From positions 1 through 34,046 of the forward strand of contig JBBSXB010000012.1 of the NCBI GenBank assembly GCA_038046005.1: DNA of 34,046 bases, given 5' to 3'. The stretch's first letter is position 1. Each line of letters starts with the position of its first letter. Source of the DNA: Nanobdellota archaeon (lineage in GTDB: Archaea > Nanobdellota > Nanobdellia > Pacearchaeales > GW2011-AR1). Position numbers and translations under genes: made by a program. The notes under the pieces were generated by a model. The model saw nothing but the letters and a program-made list of their open reading frames with translations. It was not told where the DNA came from and searched no databases. Below are positions 1-33,457 of the stretch, piece after piece.

Positions 1-2
1 GA

Positions 3-10900: not shown

Positions 10901-11338
10901 ATGAGTAAATTTGTCCTGTTCGGAATATTGGTTTTGACTATGCTTTTTGTAACTGCTGGCGTTAGTGCTAAAACGTTAATTGCAGGTAAGATATACAATG
11001 CAGATTTTAGTGGCACAATTGCTGGCGTAGATGTTATTGTTAAATGTGTGCATGGAACAACAAATACTTTGTCTACAACAAGCCTTTCTGATGGATCCTA
11101 TTCTGTAATTTATAATGAAACAGGGGATTTTGCGTGCAACAACGGGGATTTCTTAAGTGTATCTGCTACAAAAGGAGAATTATCAGGATATAAAGAAGGA
11201 GAAATACATGATGATGCTTTTGCAGATTGGGATTTGGCAGTGGTAAATGTTCCATTAGTCCCTGAATTTGGAGTTATTATTGGAGGATTGACAATACTTA
11301 GTGCTATTGGTGTTTTCTTTATGGTTAGAAGGAGATAA
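10901..11338 (+). CDS. PEF-CTERM sorting-signal surface protein 1 (small beta-sandwich ectodomain)
   Basis: Signal peptide (..GVSA) and C-terminal VPEF + TM + RRR, the tripartite archaeosortase signal. One NET sequon. Confidence 0.88.
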   Translation: MSKFVLFGILVLTMLFVTAGVSAKTLIAGKIYNADFSGTIAGVDVIVKCVHGTTNTLSTTSLSDGSYSVIYNETGDFACNNGDFLSVSATKGELSGYKEGEIHDDAFADWDLAVVNVPLVPEFGVIIGGLTILSAIGVFFMVRRR

Positions 11339-11801
11339 AAATGAAAAAATTATTTGTGATTATGACTTTGTTAATATTATCTTTAAGTCTAGTTCTTGCT
11401 AATAATTCTGGAGCAATTTGGACAACAAAAAATGATTGTGGGAATCAAACTCAAAATGTCAATCAATATGCTAAAGGGGAGAAGGTCTACATTAATGGAA
11501 ATAATTTTGAGCCGGGTAATTATGAGTGGTCTATAACCGGGCTTAATGGTGGTGCTTCCTGCGACCCAAACACAAAGGTAATTAACGGCACTTATGGGGT
11601 TGGAGATTCTAAGAAATTTTGTTTTGAGGCCTATACTGTTAATCTAGATGATTGCGGAGAGTATAAAGCTAGTTTCGGAGGGAAAAAAGATAATTATCGT
11701 GTTGATCTAGACGCTCCAGTAGTCCCTGAATTTGGAGTTATTATTGGAGGATTGACAATACTTAGTGCTATTGGTGTTTTCTTTATGGTTAGAAGGAGAT
11801 A
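11256..11801 (+). repeat. Exact 82-bp direct repeat encoding the PEF-CTERM signal (11256-11337 and 11720-11801)
   Basis: Base-by-base comparison shows TAGTCCCTGAATTTGG...AGAAGGAGATA is identical in both copies. Confidence 0.95.
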
Positions 11802-11802
11802 G
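11341..11802 (+). CDS. PEF-CTERM sorting-signal surface protein 2
   Basis: Signal peptide (..LVLA), an unrelated Cys-containing ectodomain with sequons NNS, NQT and NGT, and the identical VPEFGVIIGGLTILSAIGVFFMVRRR tail. Confidence 0.88.
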   Translation: MKKLFVIMTLLILSLSLVLANNSGAIWTTKNDCGNQTQNVNQYAKGEKVYINGNNFEPGNYEWSITGLNGGASCDPNTKVINGTYGVGDSKKFCFEAYTVNLDDCGEYKASFGGKKDNYRVDLDAPVVPEFGVIIGGLTILSAIGVFFMVRRR

Positions 11803-11832
11803 TTTTAAATAAGATTTTTCTTTTTGTTTGTA

Positions 11833-12252
11833 ATGGGAGGTTTATTGACTCACTTAAGCGCCGGCATTATTGGGGCTGTTATAATTTATTTTGCATTTTA
11901 CAGATTTCATACAAAAGAAAAAATTATTTTTGGGTTGGTGTTTATTTTAGGGAATTTACTTCCTGATTTGGTTGATTTTGGTATTTTGGGTGTGGAAATG
12001 GGTTCTTTAAATCCAAGTGAAATAATGAAAAATCCTTTGTTTGACGCCTTTGCTTTATGGGGACACACATTTTCAAATTGGGCGGTTATTGCCCTGGTTT
12101 TCTGGGTTGTAGTATTCTTAATCTATGAGTTTGAGAAAATCTCAAAGAAAACCCTTATAGTGATGATAATAAGCACCATACTGATTTTGATAGGCATTCT
12201 CATTCATCTTAAAATAGATGTTCTTGTTATTGAAAAGAGCTATTGGATTTGA
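11833..12252 (+). CDS. Membrane-bound putative metal-dependent hydrolase (YdjM-like)
   Basis: Four TM segments with TH, G..LPD..D, GHT and H..ID motifs. The ATG at 11833 is preferred to the TTG at 11824. Confidence 0.6.
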   Translation: MGGLLTHLSAGIIGAVIIYFAFYRFHTKEKIIFGLVFILGNLLPDLVDFGILGVEMGSLNPSEIMKNPLFDAFALWGHTFSNWAVIALVFWVVVFLIYEFEKISKKTLIVMIISTILILIGILIHLKIDVLVIEKSYWI

Positions 12253-12641
12253 CTTAATTTTTTAGAAACAGCTTCGTAAGTGGGATGAAAAAGAGTTTTA
12301 GCGATTGAGATAATATCTTTTACTTCTTCAAGATTTGGCCTGTAGCCGTAATAATTTATATTATGCCTTAATATTCTTAAATTGTTTAAAATACCAATTG
12401 GCCTTTCAGCCTTAACGTCAAGTTTAGTTAATTCTTTTATGCATTCTAAATGATCTTGCGAAGTAGTTCCCCTGCTTATAAGCAGAGCATCTCCCAACAT
12501 CCTAAAACTTTCATAAATATTTCTTATTATTGTTGCAGCAGATTTTTCATCAACTTTCATTGACAACGTGAATTCCATTTCCTGTTTTGCTGCAGATATT
12601 ATGCTTAAGGCATTTTTGTTGTCTGGTCTTTTGTATCTCAT
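12240..12641 (-). CDS. HEPN-domain protein (putative toxin of an MNT-HEPN pair)
   Basis: IYESFR..GDALL, an H, and LRILRHNINY (R-X4-Y). It overlaps the upstream MNT gene by 4 nt. Confidence 0.75.
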   Translation of the reverse strand: MRYKRPDNKNALSIISAAKQEMEFTLSMKVDEKSAATIIRNIYESFRMLGDALLISRGTTSQDHLECIKELTKLDVKAERPIGILNNLRILRHNINYYGYRPNLEEVKDIISIAKTLFHPTYEAVSKKLSQIQ

Positions 12642-13225
12642 GGCCTAACCTCCAAAAATCCGTCTAAAACTATCCCATTTCCTATATTAGCAAACAAGTT
12701 TAGGTCTATTTTATTTCTTGTGAAAATATGGATATTCACAGGGACATTTTTCCTAAAACCCAATTGTGCGATGTTTCCAATATTTTTTATTTCTAATTCA
12801 GAGTTCCCTATAACTTCTACAGCAATGTCCAAATCGCTTGATCCTTGATCATCTCCTTTTCTATAGCTTCCAAATAAAATTATCGCTTTAGGATTTCCGA
12901 TTATTCTATAAATTTCTTGAATTATCCCAGAGCCATAGATTAAAGAAAGGTTATAGCTAATTTTTATCGTTCTGTTATAAGAATGATTTAAATTGCAGTG
13001 TATTCTCCATGCTTTGCCTATCTGTTCTACAAAAAGAAATCCTTCATCTTTTAACGCAGTCACTATTTTGTTTGCTGTTTTTTTAGATATTTCCAATTCT
13101 TTGGCTAAATCACTTAACGTTATTTTAACTTCAGGGTAAGAGAAAAACCAGTACAATACTCTAAGCATCCCCACATTCTGTTCTAGCTGTTCTACTTTGG
13201 TTAATTTAATTGTTTTATTTTTCAT
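12638..13225 (-). CDS. wHTH + minimal nucleotidyltransferase (MNT) antitoxin/regulator
   Basis: N-terminal LSDLAKELEISKKTA..L..EG wHTH and ILFGSYRKG....SDLDIAV. Confidence 0.88.
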   Translation of the reverse strand: MKNKTIKLTKVEQLEQNVGMLRVLYWFFSYPEVKITLSDLAKELEISKKTANKIVTALKDEGFLFVEQIGKAWRIHCNLNHSYNRTIKISYNLSLIYGSGIIQEIYRIIGNPKAIILFGSYRKGDDQGSSDLDIAVEVIGNSELEIKNIGNIAQLGFRKNVPVNIHIFTRNKIDLNLFANIGNGIVLDGFLEVRP

Positions 13226-13353: not shown

Positions 13354-15564
13354 ATGAAATTGGAGAAAGGATTTAAGCAGTTGATATTGAAGACCTGCGT
13401 GTTTTTAGGATTATTTATTTTGATTCAGTTGACAACAATATTTTTACAAAAATTTGAACTATCTGTAGAGTATTATCTTATACTGGACACTGATATTGGA
13501 AAGGCTTTTCTTTTTGCTGTTGTGTTTTTTATAATTTTTTCAAAAAAGAAATTAATGGAAGTTAAAGGATGTAAGTTTGAAATTAAAAATACAATTATCC
13601 TTGGAATTGTAACAATAATTTTATTTAGCCTTTATTTTATTTTTAAAATCTTTTTAAGTAAAAATCATTCTATCGCATTAGATTACATTTATTTGTTTTT
13701 ACCTCTAAAGTATCTTATTCTAATAATTTGTGTAATTTCTTTAGCAATAACTGTTTTTGGAACTAAATTCTTTAAAGATTTTATTAAAAATTTTAAAAAA
13801 GAGCTTTTTTTCTCTTTCTTGTTATTTATATTAATACTCTTTTTAATTATTCAATTTCAAAAGACTTGGTATTTTTTTAGTTTAATCGTTGCAAAGGCAG
13901 TCTATTTTTTGTTAAGTTTAAAGTCAAATGCCGTTATGTATTTGTCTGACAAACTCCCTATTTTGGGGATTAATCAGTTTTTTATAGGAATAAATAAAGT
14001 TTGTTCTGGAATAGATTCAATTTTTCTTTTTACCTTGCTGTATTTTTTTGCAATATGTTTTGATTGGAAAGTTTTAGACAAAAAGAAAGCAATAATAATG
14101 TTTCTTCCAGGAATAATCAGCGTGTTTATTTTGAATATTTTAAGAATATATTTACTTATTTTAATTGGGGCCTATGTATCAAGCAGTTTTGCATTAGGAT
14201 TTTTCCACACTAGCGCCTCAAGCTTCTTTTTCCTAATTTATTTTGGATTGTTTTGGCTGTTGTTTTATAATTGGATGAAAAAGCCAGAATTTAAATCAAA
14301 AGAAAAAGGATTTATCAAAAGAAAATATAATCAGATAATGAGTGACTCCCTTTATAGAAATTCTGTTTATCTTATGTTAGCTACATTAATCATGTCCATT
14401 CTTGGTTTTATTTTCTGGATGATAGGGGCAAGACTTTTTACACCAGAACAGGTTGGGTTGGCAACGACACTTATCTCTGTTACGAGTTTAATAACTTCTT
14501 TTAGCCTTTTAGGGCTAAATACTGGATTGATAAGATATCTGCCTACTGCTGAAAATAAAGACAAGAAGATTAATACAAGTTTTGTCCTAGTTGCAATTGT
14601 AACAATTATGATTTCATCTCTTTTTCTCATTTCTACAAAAACACTTTCTCCAAAACTTATGTTTGTACATGATAACATAATCCTTGCTTTTGTTTTTATA
14701 TTTTTCATGATTTTTGCTTCATTTAGCTCATTGATTGACAGTGTTTTTATAGCATATAGAAACGCAAAATTTATTCTTTTGAAAAACACAATTTTTAGCT
14801 CGCTAAAAATATTACTGCTTTTTGCATTTGTCTGGCTTGGGGCTTATGGAATTTTCACATCCTGGATGATTTCAATCATTATTGGCTTTTTAACAGTTTT
14901 TTTTATACTTATTTACAAATTTAATTATAATCCAAAATTTGCTTTTTATGATTCAATAATAAAAAAGATTGGAAAGTATTCCTTTGGAAACTATGTTGCA
15001 GGTTTTATTGGGGGATTGCCCACAATGATCCTCCCTTTGTTAATCTTAAACAAATTAGGTGCAGAAAATTCTGCTTACTATTATATGTCCATGATGATTG
15101 CTACATTATTGTTTGTGATCCCTTCAGCTACATCTAGCTCACTATTTGCAGAAGGAAGTTATAACGAAAAGCATCTTAAAATTCAAATTAAAAAAGCTGT
15201 TAAAATAATTGCACTTCTTCTTATACCCGCAATACTTATCACGATATTCTTTGGAAAATATATCTTATTGCTATTTGGACAGGCATATTCAAGTGAAGGG
15301 TTTAGATTCTTGCAGATGCTCGCATTAAGTGGGATATTCATGGGGATAAATAGTATTTTTGGAACTTTGTTAAGAGTTAAAAAAAAGATTAAAAGTTTGA
15401 TTGTTATCAGTATCTTTAATGCAGTATTAATCTTGGGATTATCTTATTTGTTTATGGGCAGGAATTTAGGCTTGTTGGGAATTGGTTATGCTTGGATGAT
15501 TGGACAGGGGATTGTTAGTGTGGTTTATGTGGCGGAGACGTGGATGGGGAGAAAAAAAGGTTAG
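13354..15564 (+). CDS. Fusion of an exosortase/archaeosortase family domain (aa ~1-307) and a Wzx-like oligosaccharide flippase (aa ~325-736)
   Basis: Single 736-aa ORF. Exosortase-type motifs INKVCSGIDS (C217), LNILRI (R264) and FFH (H285). A basic linker is followed by LYRNSVYLM...GFIFW..GARLFTPEQVG, LGLNTGLIRYLP, YSFGNY and roughly 12 TM segments typical of MOP/Wzx flippases. Confidence 0.85.
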   Translation: MKLEKGFKQLILKTCVFLGLFILIQLTTIFLQKFELSVEYYLILDTDIGKAFLFAVVFFIIFSKKKLMEVKGCKFEIKNTIILGIVTIILFSLYFIFKIFLSKNHSIALDYIYLFLPLKYLILIICVISLAITVFGTKFFKDFIKNFKKELFFSFLLFILILFLIIQFQKTWYFFSLIVAKAVYFLLSLKSNAVMYLSDKLPILGINQFFIGINKVCSGIDSIFLFTLLYFFAICFDWKVLDKKKAIIMFLPGIISVFILNILRIYLLILIGAYVSSSFALGFFHTSASSFFFLIYFGLFWLLFYNWMKKPEFKSKEKGFIKRKYNQIMSDSLYRNSVYLMLATLIMSILGFIFWMIGARLFTPEQVGLATTLISVTSLITSFSLLGLNTGLIRYLPTAENKDKKINTSFVLVAIVTIMISSLFLISTKTLSPKLMFVHDNIILAFVFIFFMIFASFSSLIDSVFIAYRNAKFILLKNTIFSSLKILLLFAFVWLGAYGIFTSWMISIIIGFLTVFFILIYKFNYNPKFAFYDSIIKKIGKYSFGNYVAGFIGGLPTMILPLLILNKLGAENSAYYYMSMMIATLLFVIPSATSSSLFAEGSYNEKHLKIQIKKAVKIIALLLIPAILITIFFGKYILLLFGQAYSSEGFRFLQMLALSGIFMGINSIFGTLLRVKKKIKSLIVISIFNAVLILGLSYLFMGRNLGLLGIGYAWMIGQGIVSVVYVAETWMGRKKG

Positions 15565-16052
15565 GTTTTGTTTATCTTTTTATTTTTAACAATATTATAA
15601 ATATATTTGAAAAAGTTGTTGGCATTGTTTAAAGATGTTTGAGCCGGGTCTTTATTAGCTTGAGGAATCTTTTCGTAAGTAAAATCGGTTCTTTTCTTTC
15701 TCTCTTCTTTTAGTATAACAAGAAGACTTTCAGCTTTAATCTTAACTTCTTCATAAATAACCAAGAGTTCTGAATCAATAATTCCTTTTTCAACCAATTT
15801 TTTAAATTCAAAAAATACTTTTTGATGTGATCCCTGTTTTTCAGATATTTTTATATTTTTACTGAGCAGGTAAGCTATAGCAGAATAAAATATTGAATAA
15901 TAAGAGTGGCTTATTACAGCACTATAAAAAGTCATATCACCAAGATTTAGAGCACTCTTAATTTCTTTATCCTCTGAGATTCTAAATATGGTCTGTGCTA
16001 ATCTTAACTCGTTCTCTGATCTTTGGAAATAAAGTGTGTTTAGCGAATCCAT
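15561..16052 (-). CDS. HEPN-domain protein
   Basis: SYYSIFYSA.A.L, SH and R..RTDFTY. It lies downstream of, and overlaps, an MNT gene. Confidence 0.8.
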   Translation of the reverse strand: MDSLNTLYFQRSENELRLAQTIFRISEDKEIKSALNLGDMTFYSAVISHSYYSIFYSAIAYLLSKNIKISEKQGSHQKVFFEFKKLVEKGIIDSELLVIYEEVKIKAESLLVILKEERKKRTDFTYEKIPQANKDPAQTSLNNANNFFKYIYNIVKNKKINKT

Positions 16053-16639
16053 GGTTTTATTAATGAATAGAATGATGCTGGATTATAAAAAATTAACTGA
16101 TTTCTTGCTATTTCTTTACCTACGTTTTCAAGCTCATGTTTAAGCATTTTGGTAAATTCATCATTTGAAAATACTTGATAATGAACAGGCAACAACTCCC
16201 TCAACTTTATACTTTCCATAACAGCTTTGGCTGTTGAAACTTCTTTTTTATTCTCGACTAAGATGGCAATATCCAAGTCAGAATCTTTTCTTTGTGTGCC
16301 TTTTGCATAACTTCCAAAGACTATTCCAATAAAAGAAGAAATTTTTTTACCTACCTCTTGTTCTATAGTATTTAAAAGAGGATTAGGCAAGTCATAGATT
16401 TCATAAGTTACAAGCCCTAAATATGAAGCACTTCTATTATTAATTTCAAGGCGGTATAATAATGATTTTCCTACTTGTTCAGTAGTCATTATCTCTTCAT
16501 GCATGCAATTGCTTAATGCCCTATATAGAAATTTATTTGAGTTTATTTTGGCGCTTTCTTTGATCTGCTTAGCTGTCAATTTCTTTCCAAGATTTTTTCT
16601 AAATACATCTATTACTTTAAGTTGTTTTTTTGTTAACAT
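16040..16639 (-). CDS. wHTH + MNT nucleotidyltransferase
   Basis: N-terminal wHTH (..VGKSLLYRL) and IVFGSYAKGTQRKDSDLDIAI. Confidence 0.88.
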   Translation of the reverse strand: MLTKKQLKVIDVFRKNLGKKLTAKQIKESAKINSNKFLYRALSNCMHEEIMTTEQVGKSLLYRLEINNRSASYLGLVTYEIYDLPNPLLNTIEQEVGKKISSFIGIVFGSYAKGTQRKDSDLDIAILVENKKEVSTAKAVMESIKLRELLPVHYQVFSNDEFTKMLKHELENVGKEIARNQLIFYNPASFYSLIKPWIR

Positions 16640-16714: not shown

Positions 16715-16802
16715 TATCTGCATAATCAGCGTGATTTTATCGGGGGGAGAAGTGGGTGAGGGGGAAAAATAACTATTTATACTATATTTGCTCATAGATT
16801 TT

Positions 16803-17177
16803 ATGGAAATATTCAAAGATGAAATTAAAAGAAAACTAAAGGAAGGACAGAAATCATTTGAGTTAAAAATGCCCCTCTCTGGAGATAATTTTGCTTCTCT
16901 GTCTGTGACTTCTTTAAATGGTAGTGTGTTAAATTTGGATATGCCTGATAATCAATTTAAGATAAGATTTCAAACACTTATTTCAGGGACACAAGGATTT
17001 GAGAAGGGAAGTTTTAGGATGGATAATCATGCAGGAAAGCCGATTCACACGCATTTTTTCTGTGAAGAAGACAATCAAGTTTATGAAAATATTTTATCCC
17101 CCATGGCTTTGGGAAGCAGTTTTAAAATGATCTTAGGAAGTGCATATTTTGATTTAGAAAATAGTATAAGGAGTTAG
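16803..17177 (+). CDS. Hypothetical protein with R-x-D-N...H-x-H motif (DUF6516/TumE-like, tentative)
   Basis: FRMDNHAGKPIHTHFF. The ATG at 16803 is used; the ORF track starts at TTG 16788. Confidence 0.5.
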   Translation: MEIFKDEIKRKLKEGQKSFELKMPLSGDNFASLSVTSLNGSVLNLDMPDNQFKIRFQTLISGTQGFEKGSFRMDNHAGKPIHTHFFCEEDNQVYENILSPMALGSSFKMILGSAYFDLENSIRS

Positions 17178-17499: not shown

Positions 17500-18066
17500 A
17501 TGAAAAGGCAAAAAATAAAAAAGGATAAAAAAATTGAACATGATAAGGGCGTTGAAATAAAAGGTCTTTCACAAAAAGAAGTGAAAATTATAGCTTGGAT
17601 AGAATTTTATCAGAAATACTTTTTTACTTCTAATGATATTGAACAATTTTTTACTAGTAAGAGTATTTTTTATAATTTTATTAAAAGGCTAGTTAAGAAA
17701 AAAAGGATAATAAAAATAAATAAAAATAAATATTATCTAATTCCAATAAAAGCTAAATCTGGAGCATGGATTCCTCACGAGTTTATTATTGTGGATGAGA
17801 TATGTAATTCACAGGAGTATTATATAGGTGGCTGGACTTCTTCTAACTACTGGAAGCTAACTGACCAAATTCCTTTTACAATAGAGGTATTTACAACAAA
17901 AAAACAAGGTAAGATAAATATACTAAATACAAAGATATATTTTCATAGAATCAAGAAGATTGATAAAGTTAAGTATGTTATTAAAAAAATTGCAGGTCAT
18001 GAGTTTAAGATATTAAACAAAAAGGAGTCTAAAAAATGGTTGAAGTCAAGAGAATCACTAATATAG
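17500..18066 (+). CDS. AbiEi-like type IV antitoxin / transcriptional regulator
   Basis: wHTH RLVKKKRI..I....Y.LIP, then YYIGG..S.NYW.LTDQIP.TI.V. It overlaps a downstream AbiEii gene. Confidence 0.82.
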   Translation: MKRQKIKKDKKIEHDKGVEIKGLSQKEVKIIAWIEFYQKYFFTSNDIEQFFTSKSIFYNFIKRLVKKKRIIKINKNKYYLIPIKAKSGAWIPHEFIIVDEICNSQEYYIGGWTSSNYWKLTDQIPFTIEVFTTKKQGKINILNTKIYFHRIKKIDKVKYVIKKIAGHEFKILNKKESKKWLKSRESLI

Positions 18067-18833
18067 AATTTGAAGATGTTTTGGCTGGAACAAAATTTAA
18101 CAGAGGAAAGCTAACTAAGGATTATTTTTTAACTTTGCTTCTTTATTTGATTAAAGATGTTAACGGAATTTATTTTAAAGGAGGGACCGCTTTAAATAAA
18201 ATATTTCTTAATCATACTAGGCTGTCAGAAGATATTGACTTTTCTTTAACACGTGAAGTATCAGATGTTAAAAAAGAGGTAGTTGAAGTCATTGAAAAAT
18301 CAGGGCTATTTGGAAATGTAACTTACGATAAAAATGTAGAAGGTTTTCTTAGAATTGTTGTTGACTATATAAGCTTTGATGGAGAAAATGACAAGATATT
18401 CATAGATTTGAATAAAAGGGCAAAACTTGCCCTTCCATACGAAAATCATAAAGTTAATCATTTTTATGTTCCATTTATACCAGAATTTTCTATAAAGACA
18501 GTTGCAGAGGAAGAATTAATTGCTGAAAAAACTGCTGCTACAATTGGTAGGAATAAGCCAAGAGACCATTATGATGTTTATATGCTATTAAAGAAAGGCA
18601 TTCCTATAAATATGGAACTTGTAAAGAAGAAATGCCATGAATCAGGAGACGAGTTTTCTATAATAAAAATGTTCAACAAAGCAAAAATGCTGAAGAATAG
18701 ATGGGATAAGGATATGGCTTCACTTATTGCCGAGCCTATCTCTTTTCAGGAAATTATAACATTTTTATCAAAACATTTCAAGCTTAAAGAAGAAAAAGAA
18801 AAAATAGTTTCACAAAGATTAAGGAAGCCCTAG
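18036..18833 (+). CDS. AbiEii/AbiGii nucleotidyltransferase toxin (type IV TA)
   Basis: KDY, FKGGTALNK, RLSEDIDF, AEK..A...R.KPRD.YD. Confidence 0.92.
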   Translation: MVEVKRITNIEFEDVLAGTKFNRGKLTKDYFLTLLLYLIKDVNGIYFKGGTALNKIFLNHTRLSEDIDFSLTREVSDVKKEVVEVIEKSGLFGNVTYDKNVEGFLRIVVDYISFDGENDKIFIDLNKRAKLALPYENHKVNHFYVPFIPEFSIKTVAEEELIAEKTAATIGRNKPRDHYDVYMLLKKGIPINMELVKKKCHESGDEFSIIKMFNKAKMLKNRWDKDMASLIAEPISFQEIITFLSKHFKLKEEKEKIVSQRLRKP

Positions 18834-25220: not shown

Positions 25221-25940
25221 TCACTTCCCCGGCTTCCAACCAATGTTTTTAAATAGCATCCAGGTGATTTTTAGGCCATCTCCTATTGGAGAAAGCTTTG
25301 AATTTGATTCTCCATGCCTTGGGTCATATGTTATTGGAACTGAATAAATCTTGTTTCCTAGCTTTGCCATTTTTGTTATCATCTCTGCTTCAATTGCGAA
25401 ACCACTTGATTTTAGATAACCATTAAGCTTAACTATCGCTTTCTTTTTCCATGCAAAATATCCTGTGCATGTGTCCGTAACGTTGGCTCCATAAAAGTAT
25501 CTTGTTATAAATGTAAAAAACCAGTTTGCCGTTCTATGTGAAAAACTCATGGCATTTCCATTCATTCTTCCCTCAAGCCTTGAACCAACAATAACATCAC
25601 AAAAATCATTTTCAAGAGGCTCTACCATTCTTGGAATCTCTTTAGCTTTGTAAGTGTCATCCCCATCAAGCATAACAACAAAATCAGTGTCTTCGCTAAT
25701 ATGTCTAAAACCAGTCCTTATTGCATTTCCTTTTCCGGGATTAGGTTCGAATATTACCTTTGCACCTAATTTTTTAGCTATTTGTGATGTTTTATCACTA
25801 GAATTATTGTCTATCACAAGAACCTCAACAGTATAGCCAAGTTCTTTTAATTTTCTATTAGGAACACTTTCAATTACTTTCCCTATGCCTTTTTCCTCAT
25901 TATAACACGGAATTACAACAGTTATCTTTTTCATGGTCAT
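25221..25940 (-). CDS. Glycosyltransferase family 2 (polyprenol-phosphate sugar synthase-like)
   Basis: VVIPCYNEE, IDNNSSD.T, GKGNA, LDGDDTY, VGSR, D.CTGY and FAIEAE. Confidence 0.93.
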   Translation of the reverse strand: MTMKKITVVIPCYNEEKGIGKVIESVPNRKLKELGYTVEVLVIDNNSSDKTSQIAKKLGAKVIFEPNPGKGNAIRTGFRHISEDTDFVVMLDGDDTYKAKEIPRMVEPLENDFCDVIVGSRLEGRMNGNAMSFSHRTANWFFTFITRYFYGANVTDTCTGYFAWKKKAIVKLNGYLKSSGFAIEAEMITKMAKLGNKIYSVPITYDPRHGESNSKLSPIGDGLKITWMLFKNIGWKPGK

Positions 25941-26052: not shown

Positions 26053-26541
26053 ATGAAATATGTATTAATAGGGGCAATTGCAATAGTAGTGATTTTCCTT
26101 ATAGTTTTAGCCTTAATTCCAAAAGGCATTGAGCCTTTAACAGAGCTCTATTTTGAAAATCACACAGCTCTAACAAAGTATGCTTTTCTTGACAAAGACT
26201 ATAATTTTTCATTCACAGTCCATAATCTTGAATACACTCCCATGGAATATGAATATGTTATAGAGGCTTTTGACAAAAACAATACTCTATTATTTGAGCT
26301 TGACAGAAACAAGTTCAATCTCTCTGACAATGAAAGTATCACTCTAAATGAGAATTTTACATTCAAAAGCCACTTTGAAAACGCTAAAATCAGTATTTTG
26401 CTTAACAAACTCACTTCAGGAAATGAAATCAACGCCCAAAGAAAATTCTGGTGGAAAGATGAAAATTATCCTAATAGTGTAGACATCCACTTTTGGGTAG
26501 AGGAAATTACAGGACCTAAAATAACAATAATTCCAGATTAA
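26053..26541 (+). CDS. DUF1616-like membrane-anchored protein
   Basis: N-terminal TM, EPLTELYF, V.N.E...EY.Y and HFW. It has six N-x-S/T sequons (NHT, NFS, NNT, NLS, NES, NFT). Confidence 0.65.
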   Translation: MKYVLIGAIAIVVIFLIVLALIPKGIEPLTELYFENHTALTKYAFLDKDYNFSFTVHNLEYTPMEYEYVIEAFDKNNTLLFELDRNKFNLSDNESITLNENFTFKSHFENAKISILLNKLTSGNEINAQRKFWWKDENYPNSVDIHFWVEEITGPKITIIPD

Positions 26542-26590: not shown

Positions 26591-27316
26591 ATGAAAGAAA
26601 AGTTAATTTTTGTATTGATTTTTGCATCCATGATTCTTTCGGTTGGCTCGGTAAGTGCTCAGACACCAATTATGGGCAAGATATATAATTCAGGCTACAG
26701 CGATGTTCTATCTGGGGCATCTGTTATAATATATTGCGGCTCCAGCTCATTAAGCACAACAAGTTTTAATGACGGGGCATATGTTGTTAAATTTGAACCA
26801 GAAGTTTGTAGCTATCCCAATAGTATTCGGGTTGAAGCTAATAAAGATAATCTTGCTGGAAGTAACACCGGAACTTTAATTGAATGTGATGGCACTAATT
26901 GTACTGGAGACTATTTTTCAGTTGTTAATCTTAATTTAAAAGTTCAAACTCCATCAAGCAGTTCTTCCCCAAATTCAGGTGGAAGAGGTTTCTATATAGG
27001 ATATTTTAACTGCGGAAACAACAAATGTGATACTGGAGAAACAGTGAACACCTGCCCTAAAGATTGTACAAAAGAAACGCCTGTGAATGATATAACAGAA
27101 TTAGGGTTTAATGAAATTCCAAAAGGAGAAACACAAAATAAGACAAGTGATGGATTTTTTTCATCAATTTCTGGGGCTTTTGTGAATGTTGACGGAAAGA
27201 TAAAAACACCAACTTATATTACACTATTAATAATAATTGTTCTAGGAATAACAATAGGATTGATTTATTATAATAGAAAAAAGAGTAGAACACATTCGGG
27301 AAGTAATTTCTATTAA
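26591..27316 (+). CDS. Cys-rich surface protein with C-terminal TM anchor; N-domain paralogous to PEF-CTERM protein 1
   Basis: Signal peptide, GKIYN...STTS..DG.Y domain, Ser-rich linker, CGNNKCDTGETVNTCPKDC, then TM plus basic tail. Confidence 0.8.
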   Translation: MKEKLIFVLIFASMILSVGSVSAQTPIMGKIYNSGYSDVLSGASVIIYCGSSSLSTTSFNDGAYVVKFEPEVCSYPNSIRVEANKDNLAGSNTGTLIECDGTNCTGDYFSVVNLNLKVQTPSSSSSPNSGGRGFYIGYFNCGNNKCDTGETVNTCPKDCTKETPVNDITELGFNEIPKGETQNKTSDGFFSSISGAFVNVDGKIKTPTYITLLIIIVLGITIGLIYYNRKKSRTHSGSNFY

Positions 27317-27414: not shown

Positions 27415-30400
27415 ATGGTTGAAAAGAGAGGATTCATTTTTTTATTGTTTTTAGCTGCTTTCTCAATTTTTATCGGTTCCATTCATTCTGTCAGTTCTGT
27501 TAGCGCTTGGACTTGTACGACTAATGCGGATTGTGTCCCATGTACTGATCAAGAACATTGCGGACCAGAAGGTAATTCTTGCCAAGGCAATGATTTGATT
27601 TATGATACTAATATTTGTGTTGGTGGATTTTGTACACCATCTTCTTCAATCATCCAGGATTGCACTCAATCTGGGGATAATACTTGCACTATTGGAGTTT
27701 GCGATTCACAAACTAATTCTTGCGTTACCAACAAGTTACTTGATACTACTCCTCCTGTAACAAGCAATTTGGTTGCAACAAAGGTTATTAATGCCTGCCA
27801 AATAAAAATTGAGGCAAAAGAAACCGATCAATGCTCACCAATAAAAACTTCTGAATATTTCACAACGAGTTGCGAAACTGCTGGAACGGGAAAAACACTT
27901 TCGGCTGTAGATGGTTCTTATGATGAATTAATTGAAGATGTTATGAAAGATGAAGTGAATGTAGTTGATGGAAGCATTAATGTTTATGTGAGAGGTCAAG
28001 ATTCTGAAGGAAACTGGGAAGTTTCTTGCAAGGTTATCCAGATAAATGTTGATTGTTTACCTCCTGAATATCCTACTTGTGAAGTTGGACAAGATACTGA
28101 TACAGAGAGAGGAATTGCACTTAATGGGCAATGTAACCCTAATGAATTACTTCTGTGTGGAAATAATCCTTTGTTAACTGCAAATGTTTGTGATAAACAA
28201 TCAGCTATACAATTAGCTGAATACTTTATAGATCAACAAAATCCAGTAAACTGGGGTGGGATTGTTATGCAAGCATCTGATGGAAACTACAGAGATGAAA
28301 ATTGTGAAGATGTTCAAGCAACAATTGATTTAAGCCAATTAAGTGAGGGAACACATTATGTTGAACTTCATGGAAAAGACACCCAAGAAAATTGGGGCAA
28401 GCTTGGATTGCCTTCCAATCCTTTAATTTCTTTCATAAAAGATACTTTGCCTCCTGTAACCACAAAAACAATTAGTTTTGCTGGTGATACTTACGAATCG
28501 TGTGACCTCACATCAGCAAATGGTCATGAGTTGACCGATGGCTGCTACTATGTCAAATCAGGAATTACCAACTCCGGCTCACAACAGTCAGCTGTGAATC
28601 TCGGAACAGCAGGTGATTTCGTCATACTAGCGAAAGCAGGAATCACGACAACTGGGGCTACTTCTATTATTGGAGACATTGGGGTAAGCCCAATCGCAGC
28701 TTCGGCAATTACAGGATTTGGGCTAGTAGCTGATGCATCGAATCAATTTTCAACTTCATCCTTAGTCACAGGAAAAGCATATGCTGCCAACTATGCACCC
28801 CCTACCCCTGCCGCAATGACTGCAGCTGTAAGCGATATGGAAGTTGCATACACTGACGCATTATCAAAAGCAGTAGATGAAACTAATCCTGGAAGTGCTG
28901 GAGAAATTGGCGGATTAACACTTGCTCCTGGTGTCTATGCCTTTACTGGTGCTAGCATTAATGTACTTATATCAACAGATCTCACTCTAAATGGAAATGC
29001 AAACGATGTCTGGATATTCCAGATACCGGGAACTTTCGATGTGCATGCAGATGTTGTCTTAAGTCCTGGTGTACAAGCAAAGAATATCTTCTGGGTAGTC
29101 GCTGGTGAAACAACTATTTTCCCAGGCTTTATTGTCAATGGGAATATTTTGACTGCTGAACCAAGCACTATTGCAATGCAAACTGGTGCAGTATTAAACG
29201 GAAGAGCATTATCACAAGGAGCAGTTACATTAAATGCTAATGCTATCTCATTACCAACAGAATCTGAAAACGCTACAGCACATGGAACACAAATAACACT
29301 TAATGCAACTGACCCAGACACTCCAGATCACGAGATTTCGGGAAATCCTGTTGTAAATTACAATATATGGTACAGCCAAGATTGCACAACACAAGAGCCA
29401 ACTTGGACACTTCAGTCTTCTGGAGTAGGAGAACCAAATGAAGCTGTAGAATTAAGTTTAACTCACGACTCTTGCCATTTGATTGAATACTGGGCAAGCG
29501 ATGGATGTGACAATGTAGAAACACATCATTATGAATTAGATATTGTTGATAGTAAAGCTCCTGTAACAACAAAAGAAGTCACTGGAACATTCATTAAAGG
29601 AGATAACGATCCCATAGATTATTATTTGGGAAGTCAGTCACTTATAACATTGACGTGTAAAGACCAATCCCCACATCCTGTTGGGGGAGAAACACTTAAC
29701 TGGCAGATTTTCGGGAGTCAAGATTGTAATAATCCTGAATGGCAACAGATTGGAGAAAACCACTCTTCAACTTATGGAATTGCAAACATAGCTTATGAAG
29801 AAAGTTCATGCCACAAATTAGTTTACTATTGCACAGATGCTTTAGGAAATGCAGAACAACCTCAAACAGAAATTGATGCTGTTGATTTAACTCCTCCTGT
29901 AATAACAAAAGAGATTATTGGACCTCAATCTGGAACATGCCCTCCTAGACCAGACAGCAATGATGTTTGTTATTTAGATGGTGTTACAGAAATTCAAGTC
30001 ACTGCAACAGACTCTACACCACATCCTGTTGGTGGTGTCACTTGTGATTGGGATTATACTGTGATAGGTGGAGAAAAGATAGGGGTAGGACAAACTGGCG
30101 TCACTTCCCCATTCATTGTTCACTTCCCAGAAGAATCACAACACGAATTAACAATAACATGCACAGATGCTTTAGGAAATGAAGCAACTGATGTTGAAAC
30201 ATTCTTCGTTGATAAGACGCCACCTGTAACAATAAAGACTTATGGAGAACAAGTATTCATGCAACCTTTATTAGAAAGACTTGGCAATGCTAACAGCGAA
30301 TGGACACCAGAACAAGCATCATTGGGAACACATTCTGCAAAGCTTGTCATTCCAGATAATGCAGCAGGAACTGACTTCGCAGGAGTTGATTCATTCTTTG

Positions 30401-32760
30401 ACGTATTTGTTGATTTAACCTCGATAAACAGTCTGACATATGACCGAAAGGTGATACAATATGATAATGGATGGACTCCAATAATAATTTTTGGAGTAGA
30501 TGCCGATGGTGATGGTATATTTGAAGCACAACCACTAGAATGGCAGGCGTCTGGTTTTAATCCATCTTTGCTTGGAGATGACAGCTTCATCCAATGTGAA
30601 GCAACAACTGGATTAACTGGAGTAGACACTGATTTTGTAAATGTTGATGCATACAATAATTTTGTGTGTTACACACCAAATGTGGCTGGAGATAATTATG
30701 ACTGGAATGTTTATCAGCCTTTAAGTTATTTCAAAAGTAACGATGTAGGAAGGATACAAACAACTGATAAGGTTACAATGGTGAAAGTAGAACTTGGAGG
30801 CAACCCTTCAGCACAAGATAATGAAATAGCATATGTTGACAATGTAAGATTAAACGGAGATATAATCATTAACGAACCTGTTATATGGATAAATTCACAA
30901 ACACCAATAACATTGACTGTAGATGATGCAGGGCCACATAAATCTGGAATAAAGGAGACAAAATATAGAGTGACACCAGTTGCTGATTCAAATTGTTTTG
31001 ATGATAGTATTTGCCAATCCGCACAAGGAAATGAAGAAGAAGGATGGACGTTATATGATAATGAACCATTCACAATAAATGAACAATCCTGCCACTTAAT
31101 TGAATATTACAGCGTTGATAATGTTGATAAGACAGAACAGGTGAAAAAACAATGTGTTTTTGTAGACAATCAGGCTCCTGAAACTAACAAGGCAATAGGA
31201 AATCCTAAATTTATATGTGATGTTCTTGGAAAATGTGGTGAAGAAAGCGATTGGCAAGCTTGGTTTGTTACAAGTCAAACGCCTGTAACATTAAGCTGCA
31301 ATGATGTTCAGCCTCATCCTGTAGGTCATGAACAATTATGTTTCAAAATATCATGGCACCAGGGTGAAGAGATAAGTTACCCAACTCAAAAATATGCGGG
31401 AGAAAACACATTAACTGAAGATGGATATTATTGTGTTAAAACAAATGAAGAAGGAAAATATACTTTCAATTTCCTTGAAGACTCGCTTCACAATATAGAA
31501 TGGTATTGTAAAGATGCTCTTGGAAATCAAAACGATGCACAGATTGAATGGGACAATGTAGATAATGTTCCTCCAACAATAATAGTAAGAAACCCTACGC
31601 AAAGTGAAGCTAGTGATGTCGACAAATGTGTGCAATCCATTGTTGTAAGCATTGATGACGCAAAGTCCGGAGTAAATGATTCAAGTGTTGTTGCTGAATT
31701 ATGGAATTCTGAGGGTGTATCAGTAAAGAATGTTACACTAAAGAAACAACAGTATGGAAACACATTCACATATGAAGGATTGATGGAAAAAGATCTCCCA
31801 TCTGGAAGTTATACTTTAATAATAACCGCTAGAGACAATCTAGGAAATGAAAACAGTGTTTCAGTGGAAGAATATTTACCAGAAGTTGTAAATGTTGAAT
31901 ACATAAGCCCTTCAACATGTATTGTTGATCCAGTAAATGGGGGAAATTGTGACTTTACTTTCAATTTGTGCATGAGAGGAGGAAACACAATAGAATTCTG
32001 GATGGATAAACTTGGAAATATTGTGACACCCGCAATGCTTAATGCTTCAACGTCAAATCCTCAAGATATGAGCTGGACGTTTGTTGGATTAAAACACATT
32101 ATTGGAACCGATGAAGAATCCTGTGTGGGTCCTGATGTAGAATGGGTAAACGGTGCATGCTGGTTCAAGACAGACGCTGGAGACTTATCTCTTGAAGATA
32201 TGTGCATAGACATAACTGGACGTGCTCAATTCAAACTTCATTTGAACTTGGCTAGTGAAGCAGTGCAGGCAATTGGAGAAGGAGTCCACGACTTGAACTA
32301 CTGGATAAAAAGTTCTCTAATGTGTGAAGAGCCTGAACCAGAAGAAAAACATGTTGTAATTAATGAATTTTTATCTGGACCAGCTTTTGATAATGAGTGG
32401 ATTGAGTTATATAATCCGACAGATTCAAACGTTGATTTGGCAAACTGGAAAATACATGATAATACTGGTTTAAGGAAGACTTTATCTGGAACACTAAGTG
32501 CAGGGAGTTATTTAGTTGTCGAGTTTAATAGTAGTGTTTTGAACAATGGGGGGGATATAATTAAATTAATAGATAACTCAGAAAGTTTAATTGATTTTGT
32601 TAGTTATGGCACTTGGAATGACGGAAATACTGCAGATAATGCTGATGCGCCTTTTGATGGAGAATCTGCAGGAAGAAGTCCAAACGGTCAAGATACTGAT
32701 GTTGACAATATTGATTTTGTGATTTTTGGAAGTCCGACTCCTGGTACAACAAATATTTAA
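27415..32760 (+). CDS. 1781-aa secreted Cys-rich protein with Ig-like D-x-x-(P/A)P repeats, an ice-binding DUF3494 domain (aa ~393-611) and a C-terminal lamin-tail domain (aa ~1647-1781)
   Basis: Signal peptide; eight D-x-x-(P/A)P boundaries; DUF3494 motifs AVNLGTAGDFVILAKAGI, GDIGVSP, LTLAPGVY, VWIFQI, AKNIFWVV and NGRALSQ.AVTL; LTD motifs VVINEF, EWIELYN, LNNGGD and PTPG..N. Confidence 0.9.
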   Translation: MVEKRGFIFLLFLAAFSIFIGSIHSVSSVSAWTCTTNADCVPCTDQEHCGPEGNSCQGNDLIYDTNICVGGFCTPSSSIIQDCTQSGDNTCTIGVCDSQTNSCVTNKLLDTTPPVTSNLVATKVINACQIKIEAKETDQCSPIKTSEYFTTSCETAGTGKTLSAVDGSYDELIEDVMKDEVNVVDGSINVYVRGQDSEGNWEVSCKVIQINVDCLPPEYPTCEVGQDTDTERGIALNGQCNPNELLLCGNNPLLTANVCDKQSAIQLAEYFIDQQNPVNWGGIVMQASDGNYRDENCEDVQATIDLSQLSEGTHYVELHGKDTQENWGKLGLPSNPLISFIKDTLPPVTTKTISFAGDTYESCDLTSANGHELTDGCYYVKSGITNSGSQQSAVNLGTAGDFVILAKAGITTTGATSIIGDIGVSPIAASAITGFGLVADASNQFSTSSLVTGKAYAANYAPPTPAAMTAAVSDMEVAYTDALSKAVDETNPGSAGEIGGLTLAPGVYAFTGASINVLISTDLTLNGNANDVWIFQIPGTFDVHADVVLSPGVQAKNIFWVVAGETTIFPGFIVNGNILTAEPSTIAMQTGAVLNGRALSQGAVTLNANAISLPTESENATAHGTQITLNATDPDTPDHEISGNPVVNYNIWYSQDCTTQEPTWTLQSSGVGEPNEAVELSLTHDSCHLIEYWASDGCDNVETHHYELDIVDSKAPVTTKEVTGTFIKGDNDPIDYYLGSQSLITLTCKDQSPHPVGGETLNWQIFGSQDCNNPEWQQIGENHSSTYGIANIAYEESSCHKLVYYCTDALGNAEQPQTEIDAVDLTPPVITKEIIGPQSGTCPPRPDSNDVCYLDGVTEIQVTATDSTPHPVGGVTCDWDYTVIGGEKIGVGQTGVTSPFIVHFPEESQHELTITCTDALGNEATDVETFFVDKTPPVTIKTYGEQVFMQPLLERLGNANSEWTPEQASLGTHSAKLVIPDNAAGTDFAGVDSFFDVFVDLTSINSLTYDRKVIQYDNGWTPIIIFGVDADGDGIFEAQPLEWQASGFNPSLLGDDSFIQCEATTGLTGVDTDFVNVDAYNNFVCYTPNVAGDNYDWNVYQPLSYFKSNDVGRIQTTDKVTMVKVELGGNPSAQDNEIAYVDNVRLNGDIIINEPVIWINSQTPITLTVDDAGPHKSGIKETKYRVTPVADSNCFDDSICQSAQGNEEEGWTLYDNEPFTINEQSCHLIEYYSVDNVDKTEQVKKQCVFVDNQAPETNKAIGNPKFICDVLGKCGEESDWQAWFVTSQTPVTLSCNDVQPHPVGHEQLCFKISWHQGEEISYPTQKYAGENTLTEDGYYCVKTNEEGKYTFNFLEDSLHNIEWYCKDALGNQNDAQIEWDNVDNVPPTIIVRNPTQSEASDVDKCVQSIVVSIDDAKSGVNDSSVVAELWNSEGVSVKNVTLKKQQYGNTFTYEGLMEKDLPSGSYTLIITARDNLGNENSVSVEEYLPEVVNVEYISPSTCIVDPVNGGNCDFTFNLCMRGGNTIEFWMDKLGNIVTPAMLNASTSNPQDMSWTFVGLKHIIGTDEESCVGPDVEWVNGACWFKTDAGDLSLEDMCIDITGRAQFKLHLNLASEAVQAIGEGVHDLNYWIKSSLMCEEPEPEEKHVVINEFLSGPAFDNEWIELYNPTDSNVDLANWKIHDNTGLRKTLSGTLSAGSYLVVEFNSSVLNNGGDIIKLIDNSESLIDFVSYGTWNDGNTADNADAPFDGESAGRSPNGQDTDVDNIDFVIFGSPTPGTTNI

Positions 32761-32782
32761 ATGTTGAATTTTCATTAACACT

Positions 32783-33457
32783 ATGAAAGGAAAAATTATT
32801 TTACAATTTTTATTGGTCTTCTTAGTTTTTGCAGGAATTGGTTTAGTTTCTTCTGCTAAATATCAAGGAAGTTTGAAATTTGATAATAGCGGGGGCAAAA
32901 TATCAATAGGTGGTGGATCATGTGAAGATTGGTCCAGTAGTTTTTGGAGTGATTGCACAAGTAATCAACAGACTTTTGTTTGCATTCAATCAAACCCTTC
33001 ATGCCCAACTAAAGATTTAAAGCCCGTACAATGCGATCAAACTAGAGCATGTGGCGTAATAGACAATGGCGGCTCTTCAGGTGGGGGTGGAGGAGGCGGC
33101 AGTGGTGGCTCATTTAATTCTCCACAAGTATTTTCCAATTCAAATAATAATCAAACTCAATCCTCCTGTACTGAAAATTGGGTGTGTTCTGTCTGGAGCG
33201 ATGCTACAAATGCTTGCGGAACAAGAGATTGTGTTGATTGGAATGGCTGTGAGACTGAAGATTTAAAGCCATTAGTAGAAAAAAAGTGTGGATCTAGCGT
33301 TACACAATCAGATGGGATAACGTTTTATTTTTCGGCAATCGGAGACTTTGTTAAAACAAAAACTGGTGGTATTATTGTATTTATTATATTGATTGCAGGT
33401 ATAGGACTTTTGGTTTGGAGAATTGGGAAGAGAGGAAAGAAACCTGAGTTTAAGTGA
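32783..33457 (+). CDS. Cys-rich surface protein with TSP1-like C-x-E-x-W...WS repeats, poly-Gly linker and C-terminal TM anchor
   Basis: Signal peptide, CEDWSSSFWSDC and CTENWVCSVWSD..CGTRDCVD.NGC modules, a GGGGGGG linker, then TM plus KRGKK. Confidence 0.8.
   Translation: MKGKIILQFLLVFLVFAGIGLVSSAKYQGSLKFDNSGGKISIGGGSCEDWSSSFWSDCTSNQQTFVCIQSNPSCPTKDLKPVQCDQTRACGVIDNGGSSGGGGGGGSGGSFNSPQVFSNSNNNQTQSSCTENWVCSVWSDATNACGTRDCVDWNGCETEDLKPLVEKKCGSSVTQSDGITFYFSAIGDFVKTKTGGIIVFIILIAGIGLLVWRIGKRGKKPEFK

Follow-up and report, generated by a model that had tools for sequence, protein, structure and literature searches.

What does a sorting enzyme of the exosortase/archaeosortase type attach its cargo to? 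Outside the ArtA of Haloferax, the acceptor is, to our knowledge, known to nobody. The contig analysed here (C12 of genome G000, complete at 34,046 bases and referred to as the window) makes this question testable by encoding a very small system of one enzyme, two cargos and one glycan cassette. In its central gene (13354-15564, plus strand), which specifies a protein of 736 residues, a sortase domain is fused to a Wzx-type flippase (Exosortase_EpsH plus Polysacc_synt), a hint that surface proteins may be anchored together with a lipid-linked sugar in a tiny DPANN archaeon. We lean, if only modestly, towards reading the island as a pair of conserved cell-surface modules joined by this one fused gene, with anchoring coupled to glycan delivery. 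Module A comprises the sortase, two cargos with VPEFG tails, which are the only substrates in the genome, and a YdjM-like protein; module B comprises the flippase, a DUF2206 protein modelled as a GT-C-type enzyme, glycosyltransferases of families GT4 and GT2 and a DUF1616-like protein.

The genome (874,611 bases, 33% GC, 98% complete) fits the reduced DPANN type that a first-pass annotation of the sequence had recognized, and relatives of the sequence are labelled Nanoarchaeota, Woesearchaeota or Pacearchaeota. That annotation had read about 22 kb of the window as one complete pathway, in which an archaeosortase C (ArtC) anchors PEF-CTERM proteins and the neighbouring genes build, export and transfer a glycan. 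The genes it listed are all present, as judged by open reading frames (ORFs), Pfam and NCBIfam; about eight further genes in the span went unlisted, namely toxin-antitoxin (TA)-like pairs, a RusA-like ORF, a 129-aa ORF and the YdjM-like gene. The observation is confirmed and its interpretation partly supported, as detailed in the following.

The sortase, its tails and a membrane partner

The sortase domain covers approximately residues 1-320 of the fusion protein (13354-14313), the rest being the flippase. It matches TIGR04178 with 46.5 bits (cut-off 23) and PF09721, Exosortase_EpsH, with 44.3 bits (cut-off 25.7), and belongs to the exosortase/archaeosortase superfamily. In 16 fused homologs, C217, R264 and H285 do not vary; they are proposed to be the catalytic residues, by analogy with ArtA (PMC6098224). 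The ArtC model TIGR03762 (cut-off 100 bits) finds nothing at E <= 10 in the genome, although control genomes are silent as well, and is not matched in an hmmscan of the sortase domain; the ArtE model TIGR04124 does not match the island sortase, and the ArtA models do not report its domain. The best specific matches are bacterial exosortase models, far under their cut-offs (XrtE, 46 vs 150 bits; XrtX; XrtV). By sequence, the enzyme appears to represent an unnamed exosortase-family clade that is common to DPANN archaea and to contigs with bacterial labels, mostly of the Candidate Phyla Radiation (CPR). A quick tree was made of 49 sortase domains (long proteins trimmed to the domain, all rows kept, root arbitrary). 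In it, the eight rows with bacterial labels cluster as a single clade (support 99) inside the DPANN rows, the G000 sortase groups with the fused enzyme of locus L005 and an unfused same-family relative (support 99), and fused and split sortases interleave.

Two small genes encode the presumable cargos, and both proteins (10901-11338 and 11341-11802, plus strand) terminate in VPEFGVIIGGLTILSAIGVFFMVRRR. Cargo 1, small and secreted, starts with a hydrophobic signal and ends in a tail made up of the motif VPEFG, a transmembrane (TM) helix and RRR, which scores 62.1 bits with the tail model; its mature domain is paralogous to the N-terminal part of the protein encoded at 26591-27316 (E 1e-14) and may, according to an Atlas lead only, have a carboxypeptidase-regulatory-like fold. 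Cargo 2 (58.9 bits with the tail model) is likewise small and secreted, has four Cys and three sequons, and is unrelated to cargo 1 in its mature part; homologs of it adjoin the sortase in L007, L018, L026 and L029. The last 82 nt of the two genes (11256-11337 and 11720-11801, plus strand) are base-identical: columns 37-118 of the alignment are invariant, and the DNA upstream is unrelated. Such an identity in otherwise unrelated genes suggests that the tail signal has undergone concerted evolution or gene conversion. Across loci, the [VI]PEF[GSA]-TM-basic signal is uniform. The sequons that the first-pass annotation noted in the tail proteins do exist, at the level of chance in a shuffle (1 vs 0.9 and 3 vs 1.7 expected). 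When the whole genome was scanned for further VPEFG-TM-RRR tails, both with a regular expression over all ORFs and with a hidden Markov model of the tail, these two were the only ones found. As a side observation, tails within one locus are much alike elsewhere, too, for instance in L029 (seven tails) and L022 (five); in L005, a 56%-identical relative, genes for an Rce1-like CAAX/CPBP intramembrane protease and a PEGA-domain protein (at 61-744 and 2664-3524) flank three tail genes.

Curated models leave the tail signal unnamed. The PEF-CTERM model TIGR03024 (cut-off 23 bits) does not report the G000 tails and, for 12 related tails collected in other loci, gives only two scores, both sub-threshold (14.7 and 10.6 bits); neither PEFG-CTERM (TIGR04296) nor VPEID-CTERM (TIGR04161) has a match at E <= 10. 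A newer Pfam family, PEF-CTERM_ARCH (PF26596), is named in the Atlas output. The system behaves like an archaeosortase system, yet by curated tests it is not ArtC/PEF-CTERM: with TIGR03762, TIGR03024, TIGR04296 and TIGR04161 all failing, the earlier family label finds no support, and sortase and signal are both presently without a name in the curated collections.

The third component of the module is a small polytopic membrane protein (11824-12252, plus strand). Its match to PF04307 remains below the cut-off (18.8 vs 29 bits), an Atlas lead points to a YdjM cluster (score 0.85), and H10, P47, D48, H128, D132 and E137 are invariant in 16 sequences. Gene neighbourhoods were compared in 78 loci, which had been collected with flippase peptides as seeds. 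Among those with at least 5 kb of upstream sequence, the YdjM-like gene is present in 11 of 21 sortase-positive vs 1 of 29 sortase-negative loci; tails occur in 18/21 and 4/29, respectively. In the commonest order, the tails come first and are followed by the YdjM-like gene, the sortase and the flippase; in G000 the tails are located ~1.5 kb from the sortase. The sortase module would thus have the YdjM-like protein, a candidate metal-dependent hydrolase, as a conserved partner.

Enzyme and tail also go together at the level of genomes. Among 401 genomes of the phylum, 43 are positive for the island sortase, 39 for the tail model and 102 for a second sortase, the pacearchaeosortase. Island sortase and tail are found together in 29 genomes, the enzyme only in 14, the tail only in 10 and neither in 348; in other words, the island sortase is present in 29 of the 39 tail-positive and 14 of the 362 tail-negative genomes, and in 22/24 of those with strong tails (E <= 1e-6). 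The corresponding counts are 22, 14, 10 and 348 after removal of G000 and the six genomes used for training the model, and 28, 14, 9 and 348 after removal of two genomes flagged as unpublished (G332, with sortase and tail; G321, with a weak tail only). Because related genomes are not independent, the direction of this co-occurrence is more important than its P values. For the pacearchaeosortase the picture is different: both in 6 genomes, enzyme only in 96, tail only in 33 and neither in 266. The VPEFG tails track the island sortase (29/39 tail-positive genomes) and not the pacearchaeosortase (6/39), so that this second sortase does not take the place of the one proposed; together with the synteny, this bears out the pairing of sortase and tails in the first-pass annotation.

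In G000, the pacearchaeosortase was uncovered by the genome search with the ArtE model TIGR04124. It is an unfused protein of 184 aa (C1:41106-41600; L135:1387-1941, minus strand) matching NF033505 with 182 bits (cut-off 80), and an ORF at a distance of 1.1 kb (L135 3065-3352) has 95 C-terminal residues that score 107.6 bits with NF033506 (PACE-CTERM S-layer), just under the cut-off of 110. Among the other genomes of the window's own family, 25/27 contain the pacearchaeosortase and 1/27 the island sortase; the former being near-universal and the latter rare, the island is accessory. Beside the pacearchaeosortase lies a gene resembling PAP2-type polyprenyl-diphosphate phosphatases. G000 is one of only four genomes with both sortases (one only in 39 and 98, neither in 260; odds ratio 0.27), a rarity that may be an effect of lineage.

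The glycan cassette and its ties to the sortase

The C-terminal half of the fusion protein matches PF01943 (Polysacc_synt) with 42.4 bits (cut-off 28.2), and PF13440 and MatE in addition. It superposes best on the lipid III flippase WzxE (9g9n_A), with a template-modelling score of 0.82 normalised to the target and a root-mean-square deviation (rmsd) of 3.7; by this modelling it is a Wzx-type MOP flippase, predicted to move a lipid-linked sugar. With a predicted local distance difference test (pLDDT) of 75.7 and a predicted template-modelling score (pTM) of 0.58, the model of the entire fusion is no reliable guide to how its two halves are placed relative to each other.

The remaining genes of module B are encoded on the minus strand, apart from the one for the DUF1616-like protein. 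The DUF2206 protein (20647-22938; Pfam 100.3 bits) contains an N-terminal TM module of ~130-180 residues and a GT-C core spanning approximately residues 180-763. An AlphaFold model based on a 28-sequence alignment has a pLDDT of 84.9 and a pTM of 0.89. It was compared by VIA-align with 48,161 chains and, independently, by Foldseek. The first 20 VIA-align ranks all have the GT-C fold (17 enzymes and three rows of a glycosylphosphatidylinositol (GPI)-transamidase subunit; Z 19.3 to 8.3), and the next row is an unrelated fold with Z 7.6. AglB is at the top (Z 19.3, rmsd 4.2, 423 aligned residues), followed by STT3B (17.2), PglB (16.5), AftA (16.4), ArnT (16.4) and ALG12 (16.2); PMTs, DPY19, AftD/B, ALG9/3/6, Emb and PimE are found further down. 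Foldseek ranks AftA, STT3A, ArnT and PglB best. On the strength of these models, the DUF2206 family gains a fold-level assignment as a GT-C glycosyltransferase, a possibility already raised by the first-pass annotation. At the level of sequence, the protein has no match to the STT3 Pfam family, the sole such match of the genome being at C1:87654, and its profile retrieves no solved GT-C enzyme from the sequences of the PDB, only two chance-level antibody matches. R211, D219, E223, R321 and H361-Y362-S363 are invariant in the 28 sequences. D219 and E223 directly follow the first GT-C helix (192-209), and this acidic pair in the first extracytoplasmic loop may be catalytic.

Two GT4 glycosyltransferases, assigned by Pfam and synteny, precede the DUF2206 gene: GT4 a (22919-24100; Glycos_transf_1, 145 bits), whose stop overlaps the DUF2206 start, and GT4 b (24097-25239; 82.9 bits). 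The three overlapping genes of G000 correspond to a single GT4-GT4-DUF2206 ORF in the Saccharibacteria-labelled loci L049 and L050, and the fused DUF2206 homolog of L049 barely reaches PMT_2 (26.2 vs 26.1 bits). The GT2 enzyme (25221-25940) scores 109.6 bits with PF00535, 183.4 with AglJ (TIGR04182, cut-off 325) and 98.1 with NF041391, and seems to be of the polyprenyl-phosphate hexose synthase-like type (AglJ/dolichol-phosphate-hexose transferase-like); it is present in 25/33 DUF2206 loci. Beyond the DUF2206 gene, a polysaccharide pyruvyl transferase (19498-20625; PF04230, 105.8 vs 25.3 bits; CsaB equivalog, 72.8 vs 213.1 bits) has a homolog in only one of the 78 loci (L080) and is probably a variable decoration enzyme. 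The DUF1616-like single-pass protein (26053-26541, plus strand; 162 aa) is encoded divergently from GT2 and has homologs in 14/78 loci. It scores 31.4 bits with PF07760, marginally below the cut-off of 31.6, over profile positions 156-287 of 307, and its extracellular domain goes along with six sequons, which were correctly counted earlier and represent an enrichment (shuffle mean 1.8, sd 1.2). The N-terminal ~130 residues of the DUF2206 protein weakly match the same family (20.4 bits, positions 3-127). These matches to complementary parts of one profile suggest that the two proteins work together.

An AglH-type GPT (PF00953, 104.9 bits) is encoded at C1:86401, directly upstream of the sole STT3/AglB gene (C1:87654, a 987-aa frame), the region spanning C1:86401-88418 (L136, L082). 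With GPT and AglB on contig C1, the canonical N-glycosylation core lies outside the island, which cannot be called complete, as the first-pass annotation did.

Where at least 6 kb of downstream sequence is available, DUF2206 is found in 13/17 loci with a sortase and in 16/31 without one, and GT2 in 12/17 and 17/31. Since the cassette of flippase, DUF2206, GT4 and GT2, often with the DUF1616-like gene, is frequent both with and without a sortase, it constitutes a unit by itself; it is present in DPANN, CPR-labelled and Streptomyces contigs. Among the 401 genomes of the phylum, six contain DUF2206, and in four of these the island sortase is on the same contig. Longer DUF2206 proteins (~860-1034 aa) are encoded next to a related flippase and a GT4, without a sortase, in L061, L063, L066, L072 and L077 (Streptomyces, Quadrisphaera).

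The sortase is tied to this unit in several ways. Of the 78 flippase-seeded loci, 28 contain a sortase: in eight it is fused, in 10 the genes overlap or abut on the same strand, in one they abut on opposite strands, and in nine the distance is 0.7-5.2 kb. Half of the relatives listed for the 736-aa protein (60/120; 640-755 aa) carry both the sortase and the flippase Pfam domains. Two further architectures exist: in P0128 the flippase precedes the sortase, in reverse domain order, and in P0258 the sortase is joined to a Bac_transf priming phosphoglycosyl transferase. Through these three fusion architectures, the sortase family is physically tied to enzymes of lipid-linked glycans. Modules A and B are separable, and they are held together by fusions in both domain orders and by the sortase-phosphoglycosyltransferase fusion. 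Apart from these, P0123 combines the sortase with a C-terminal part of 480 aa without an assigned family, and P0084, P0106 and P0114 are flippase relatives of ~700-740 aa with PF24793 in the place of the sortase domain.

Proposed coupling of anchoring and glycan delivery

From gene content, folds, conserved residues, synteny, co-occurrence and fusions, we infer the enzymatic steps and both acceptors, that of the sortase and that of the GT-C enzyme. The two cargos would be exported by Sec and retained in the membrane by their tails; the sortase domain would cut at the VPEF motif via Cys217 and pass the cargo to its acceptor. At the cytoplasmic face, GT2 may load polyprenyl phosphate with a hexose, and the GT4s and the pyruvyl transferase may extend or decorate the lipid-linked sugar. 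The flippase half would then carry the sugar outward, to be used on the outer face by the GT-C enzyme DUF2206, probably together with the DUF1616-like protein. Gene fusion or translational coupling holds sortase and flippase together, so cleavage and anchoring may take place at the site where the glycan emerges. The three fusion architectures point to the glycan carrier as the acceptor. In its specific form, namely that the acceptor is the very lipid-linked glycan flipped by the sortase's own fused flippase, this proposal is tentative and on the whole unlikely. Were it true, the two VPEFG cargos would sit on a glycolipid anchor made by the GT2/GT4/GT-C cassette, a prokaryotic convergent counterpart of GPI anchoring common to DPANN archaea and CPR bacteria, and the YdjM-like hydrolase would remove or remodel the leftover.

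A number of points weigh against the reading of two coupled modules. The seeding of the 78 loci with flippase peptides favours seeing flippases. When 20 loci were seeded with the sortase instead (up to 9 kb on each side), tails were found in nine and a GT4 or GT2 match in 13; the island-type flippase occurs in only four of them, all among the nine strongest sortase matches. Among the best 150 of 929 sortase-domain cluster representatives (E <= 1e-3), only four have 650 aa or more, P0128 and P0258 among them; by these two counts, the fusion is a minority state. The widespread cassette without a sortase indicates that DUF2206 needs none, and 39 of the 43 sortase-positive genomes are without DUF2206 (E <= 1e-8); together with the 16/31 sortase-negative loci that have the cassette, this leaves the strict notion of one pathway without support. 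As to the pairing of enzyme and tail, the tail model was trained on tails found adjoining sortases, 14 sortase-positive genomes have no tail match, strong tails occur in G017 and G138 without an island-type sortase or any PF09721 match, and Fisher values overstate the association because related genomes are not independent. Labels of metagenome-assembled genomes may also be wrong, as in the case of L011, which is labelled Flavobacterium; this contig and L044, L074 and L073 (Gammaproteobacteria and Sulfotelmatobacter labels), whose versions of the locus are of DPANN or CPR type, are probably misbinned or mislabelled. Finally, the evidence on the system comes from sequence and models. Much of this could be accommodated by two independent surface systems that merely share a variable island: the sortase would transfer its cargos to an ordinary membrane lipid, in the manner of ArtA, the cassette would serve S-layer or other N-glycans, in the manner of AglD/AglR/AglS, and the flippase fusion would reflect co-expression or genome compaction rather than a common substrate. 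The separability of the modules across loci and genomes is what such an arrangement predicts, there is precedent for either half (lipid anchoring by ArtA, PMC6098224, and the AglD/AglR/AglS route, PMC3871713), AglB and GPT exist on C1, and the interleaving of fused and split sortases in the quick tree implies that the fusion is evolutionarily labile. It is harder to reconcile with three different architectures (sortase-flippase, flippase-sortase and sortase-Bac_transf) and with the 10 loci in which the genes overlap or abut on the same strand, which together with the fusions exceed easy chance adjacency. We regard independence as a possibility of clearly lower probability than coupling, without dismissing it.

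The island might also be assigned to a Wzx/Wzy-type route, in which DUF2206, instead of transferring onto protein, polymerises a surface polysaccharide in the manner of Wzy or a ligase, and the sortase attaches the cargos to the polymer. A Wzx-like flippase, GT4s and a pyruvyl transferase are typical of polysaccharide loci; the sortase-Bac_transf fusion P0258 and the association of exosortases with exopolysaccharide (EPS), as put forward for PEP-CTERM/EpsH (PMC1569441), would fit as well. The fold of DUF2206 argues otherwise, its top matches being GT-C transferases that act on polyprenyl-linked donors (oligosaccharyltransferase, AftA, ArnT, ALG, PMT); the absence of any Wzy or WaaL chain among the best 50 VIA-align rows or the Foldseek matches is weak evidence in the same direction. 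Furthermore, no chain-length regulator or export gene is among the Pfam matches of the island, and the GT2 encoded with it belongs to the polyprenyl-phosphate-hexose synthase type, so this polymerase reading appears doubtful. By far the least probable is the original proposal in its full extent, a complete ArtC/PEF-CTERM sort-and-glycosylate pathway with all listed surface proteins as targets and DUF2206 as the final transferase or polymerase. It has in its favour the tails with P-E-F, a TM helix and a basic end, the role of ArtC as the PEF-CTERM archaeosortase of Methanosarcinales and anaerobic methanotrophic archaea (ANME; PMC5244752 and PMC9723798), the sub-threshold TIGR03024 scores of 2/12 related tails, and the GT-C fold of DUF2206. 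On family assignment and completeness it is already contradicted: ArtC is unmatched (with the control genomes silent, too), TIGR03024 is silent on the G000 tails, among specific models the sortase scores best with those for bacterial exosortases, in every case far under the cut-off, and both the priming GPT and AglB are encoded elsewhere in the genome. In addition, the sequons of the tail proteins are at chance level, and the large proteins of 1781 and 224 aa at the right-hand end have neither a PEF tail nor conserved synteny. What endures of the single pathway is the synteny of the glycan genes with the flippase and the fusions of the sortase; the inclusion of all surface proteins does not, as those two lack homologs in the 78 loci. 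Coupled anchoring and glycan delivery by two modules thus remains the reading that we prefer. Its reach would extend beyond G000, to a surface-biogenesis kit common to archaea and bacteria of ultra-small size, which attach to their hosts by way of their cell surfaces.

Neighbouring genes and known systems

Positions 1-10,000 of the window are occupied by housekeeping genes, including two aminoacyl-tRNA synthetases, TrmB, adenylate kinase and phosphoribosyl pyrophosphate synthase. Directly upstream of the tail genes, a secreted nuclease with SNase and lamin-tail domains is encoded (10065-10844, plus strand), which has close homologs in the same position in L007 and L046 (E 1e-69 and 4e-74). A scan for promoters and terminators of the sigma-70 type, a promoter type that is not that of archaea, returned 86 sites vs 93.9 expected.

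On either side of the sortase-flippase gene, the opposite strand encodes an MNT/HEPN-type pair, and further along there is an AbiEi/AbiEii pair. The first pair (12240-13225, minus strand), which is no part of the system, consists of a nucleotidyltransferase (12638-13225; NTP_transf_2, Polbeta and helix-turn-helix by Pfam, MntA-like by NCBIfam) and an overlapping partner (12240-12641), which is HEPN-like on position only, since it has no Pfam match; homologs of the pair are found in L046 and L035. The second pair (15561-16639, minus strand) is made up of HEPN (15561-16052, 25.2 bits) and MNT (16040-16639, NTP_transf_2 43.7 bits) genes. In the third (17500-18833, plus strand), AbiEii reaches 98 bits and the AbiEi-like partner 19.9 bits, which is below the cut-off. 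L005, the closest long relative, has no TA genes between flippase and DUF2206 nor at the place of the first pair, so that all three TA-like pairs of the island are insertions. The sortase-flippase junction may be a hot spot for such events, because 0.7-3.6 kb of other DNA are present there in several relatives. The 129-aa ORF (16788-17177) and the weakly RusA-like ORF (18905-19474) are both on the plus strand.

To the right of the DUF1616-like gene, three Cys-rich proteins are encoded on the plus strand. The first (26591-27316, 8 Cys), the paralog of cargo 1 at its N-terminus, is a surface protein whose C-terminus is a plain TM anchor; it lacks a PEF motif and is not matched by the tail model. 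The second (27415-32760), a secreted protein of 1781 aa with 54 Cys, combines Ig-like domains and a DUF3494 domain of the ice-binding-like type (201.5 bits) with a lamin-tail domain at its C-terminus, has no membrane anchor and is depleted of sequons (7 vs 20.1 expected, sd 3.9). The third (32783-33457) is TM-anchored and has 224 aa and 12 Cys. Neither of the latter two has a PEF tail or a homolog in any of the 78 related loci. The large right-hand proteins are neighbours and not demonstrated members of the system.

Which known systems does the island resemble? ArtA of Haloferax volcanii is, according to PMC6098224, the sole family member for which cleavage and lipid anchoring have been proven experimentally. 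With ArtA/PGF-CTERM, the island shares the superfamily signature, the conserved Cys/Arg/His and the tripartite tail of motif, TM helix and basic end. Its motif, however, is VPEFG and not PGF, its sortase is unmatched by ArtA models, shares a gene with a Wzx-type flippase or directly adjoins one, and has only two substrates, both encoded nearby, and the system is shared with CPR-labelled contigs. ArtC/PEF-CTERM (TIGR03762/TIGR03024), described for Methanosarcinales and ANME-2 (PMC5244752 and PMC9723798), has in common with the island the P-E-F before the TM helix, the archaeal host and the sub-threshold TIGR03024 matches in 2/12 related tails; the differences are that the curated models stay below threshold on the island sortase and tails, and that bacterial exosortase models, though likewise far under their cut-offs, score better on the sortase. 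In the PEP-CTERM/exosortase system (EpsH, XrtA), the enzyme is encoded amid polysaccharide biosynthesis genes and correlates with its signal across genomes, according to PMC1569441, and the island likewise has a sorting enzyme among polysaccharide genes that tracks its signal across genomes. In contrast, the island has another motif, an archaeal host without an outer membrane, a flippase fusion, and a GT-C (DUF2206) cassette in place of classical EPS export genes. The pacearchaeosortase/PACE-CTERM pair (NF033505/NF033506) of the same genome is set apart by its short unfused enzyme and its other tail, and does not track the PEF tails.

Module B finds its counterpart in AglD/AglR/AglS of Haloferax volcanii, where, according to PMC3871713, a GT2 charges dolichol phosphate with a hexose, a Wzx-like protein participates in flipping and a membrane transferase acts outside. 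The trio of GT2, flippase-like protein and outer-face transferase is alike, whereas the island GT2 remains under the AglJ cut-off (183 vs 325) and two GT4s and a sortase are attached; PF09971 has no match in the Haloferax volcanii control genome. To solved GT-C enzymes (AglB/STT3/PglB, AftA, ArnT, ALG12, PMT), the DUF2206 model is similar over ~340-470 residues (Z 14.9-19.3) and in the acidic residues of the outer loop, and it differs from them in its extra N-terminal TM module and in having no sequence-level match and no STT3 Pfam match.

In the literature searched, DUF2206 is not mentioned, and there is no description of the sortase clade, its fusions, the YdjM-like partner or the GT-C assignment; titles and abstracts on archaeosortases and DPANN do not refer to the island system, and a search for exosortases in Patescibacteria or the Candidate Phyla Radiation yielded nothing relevant. 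Exosortase/archaeosortase systems near polysaccharide loci, ArtC/PEF-CTERM and the logic of AglD/AglR/AglS were already known. What the island adds to them is an unnamed sortase clade with its signal in DPANN and CPR-labelled genomes, the recurrent fusion of this clade to enzymes of lipid-linked glycans, a YdjM-like partner and a DUF2206 family with a predicted GT-C fold.

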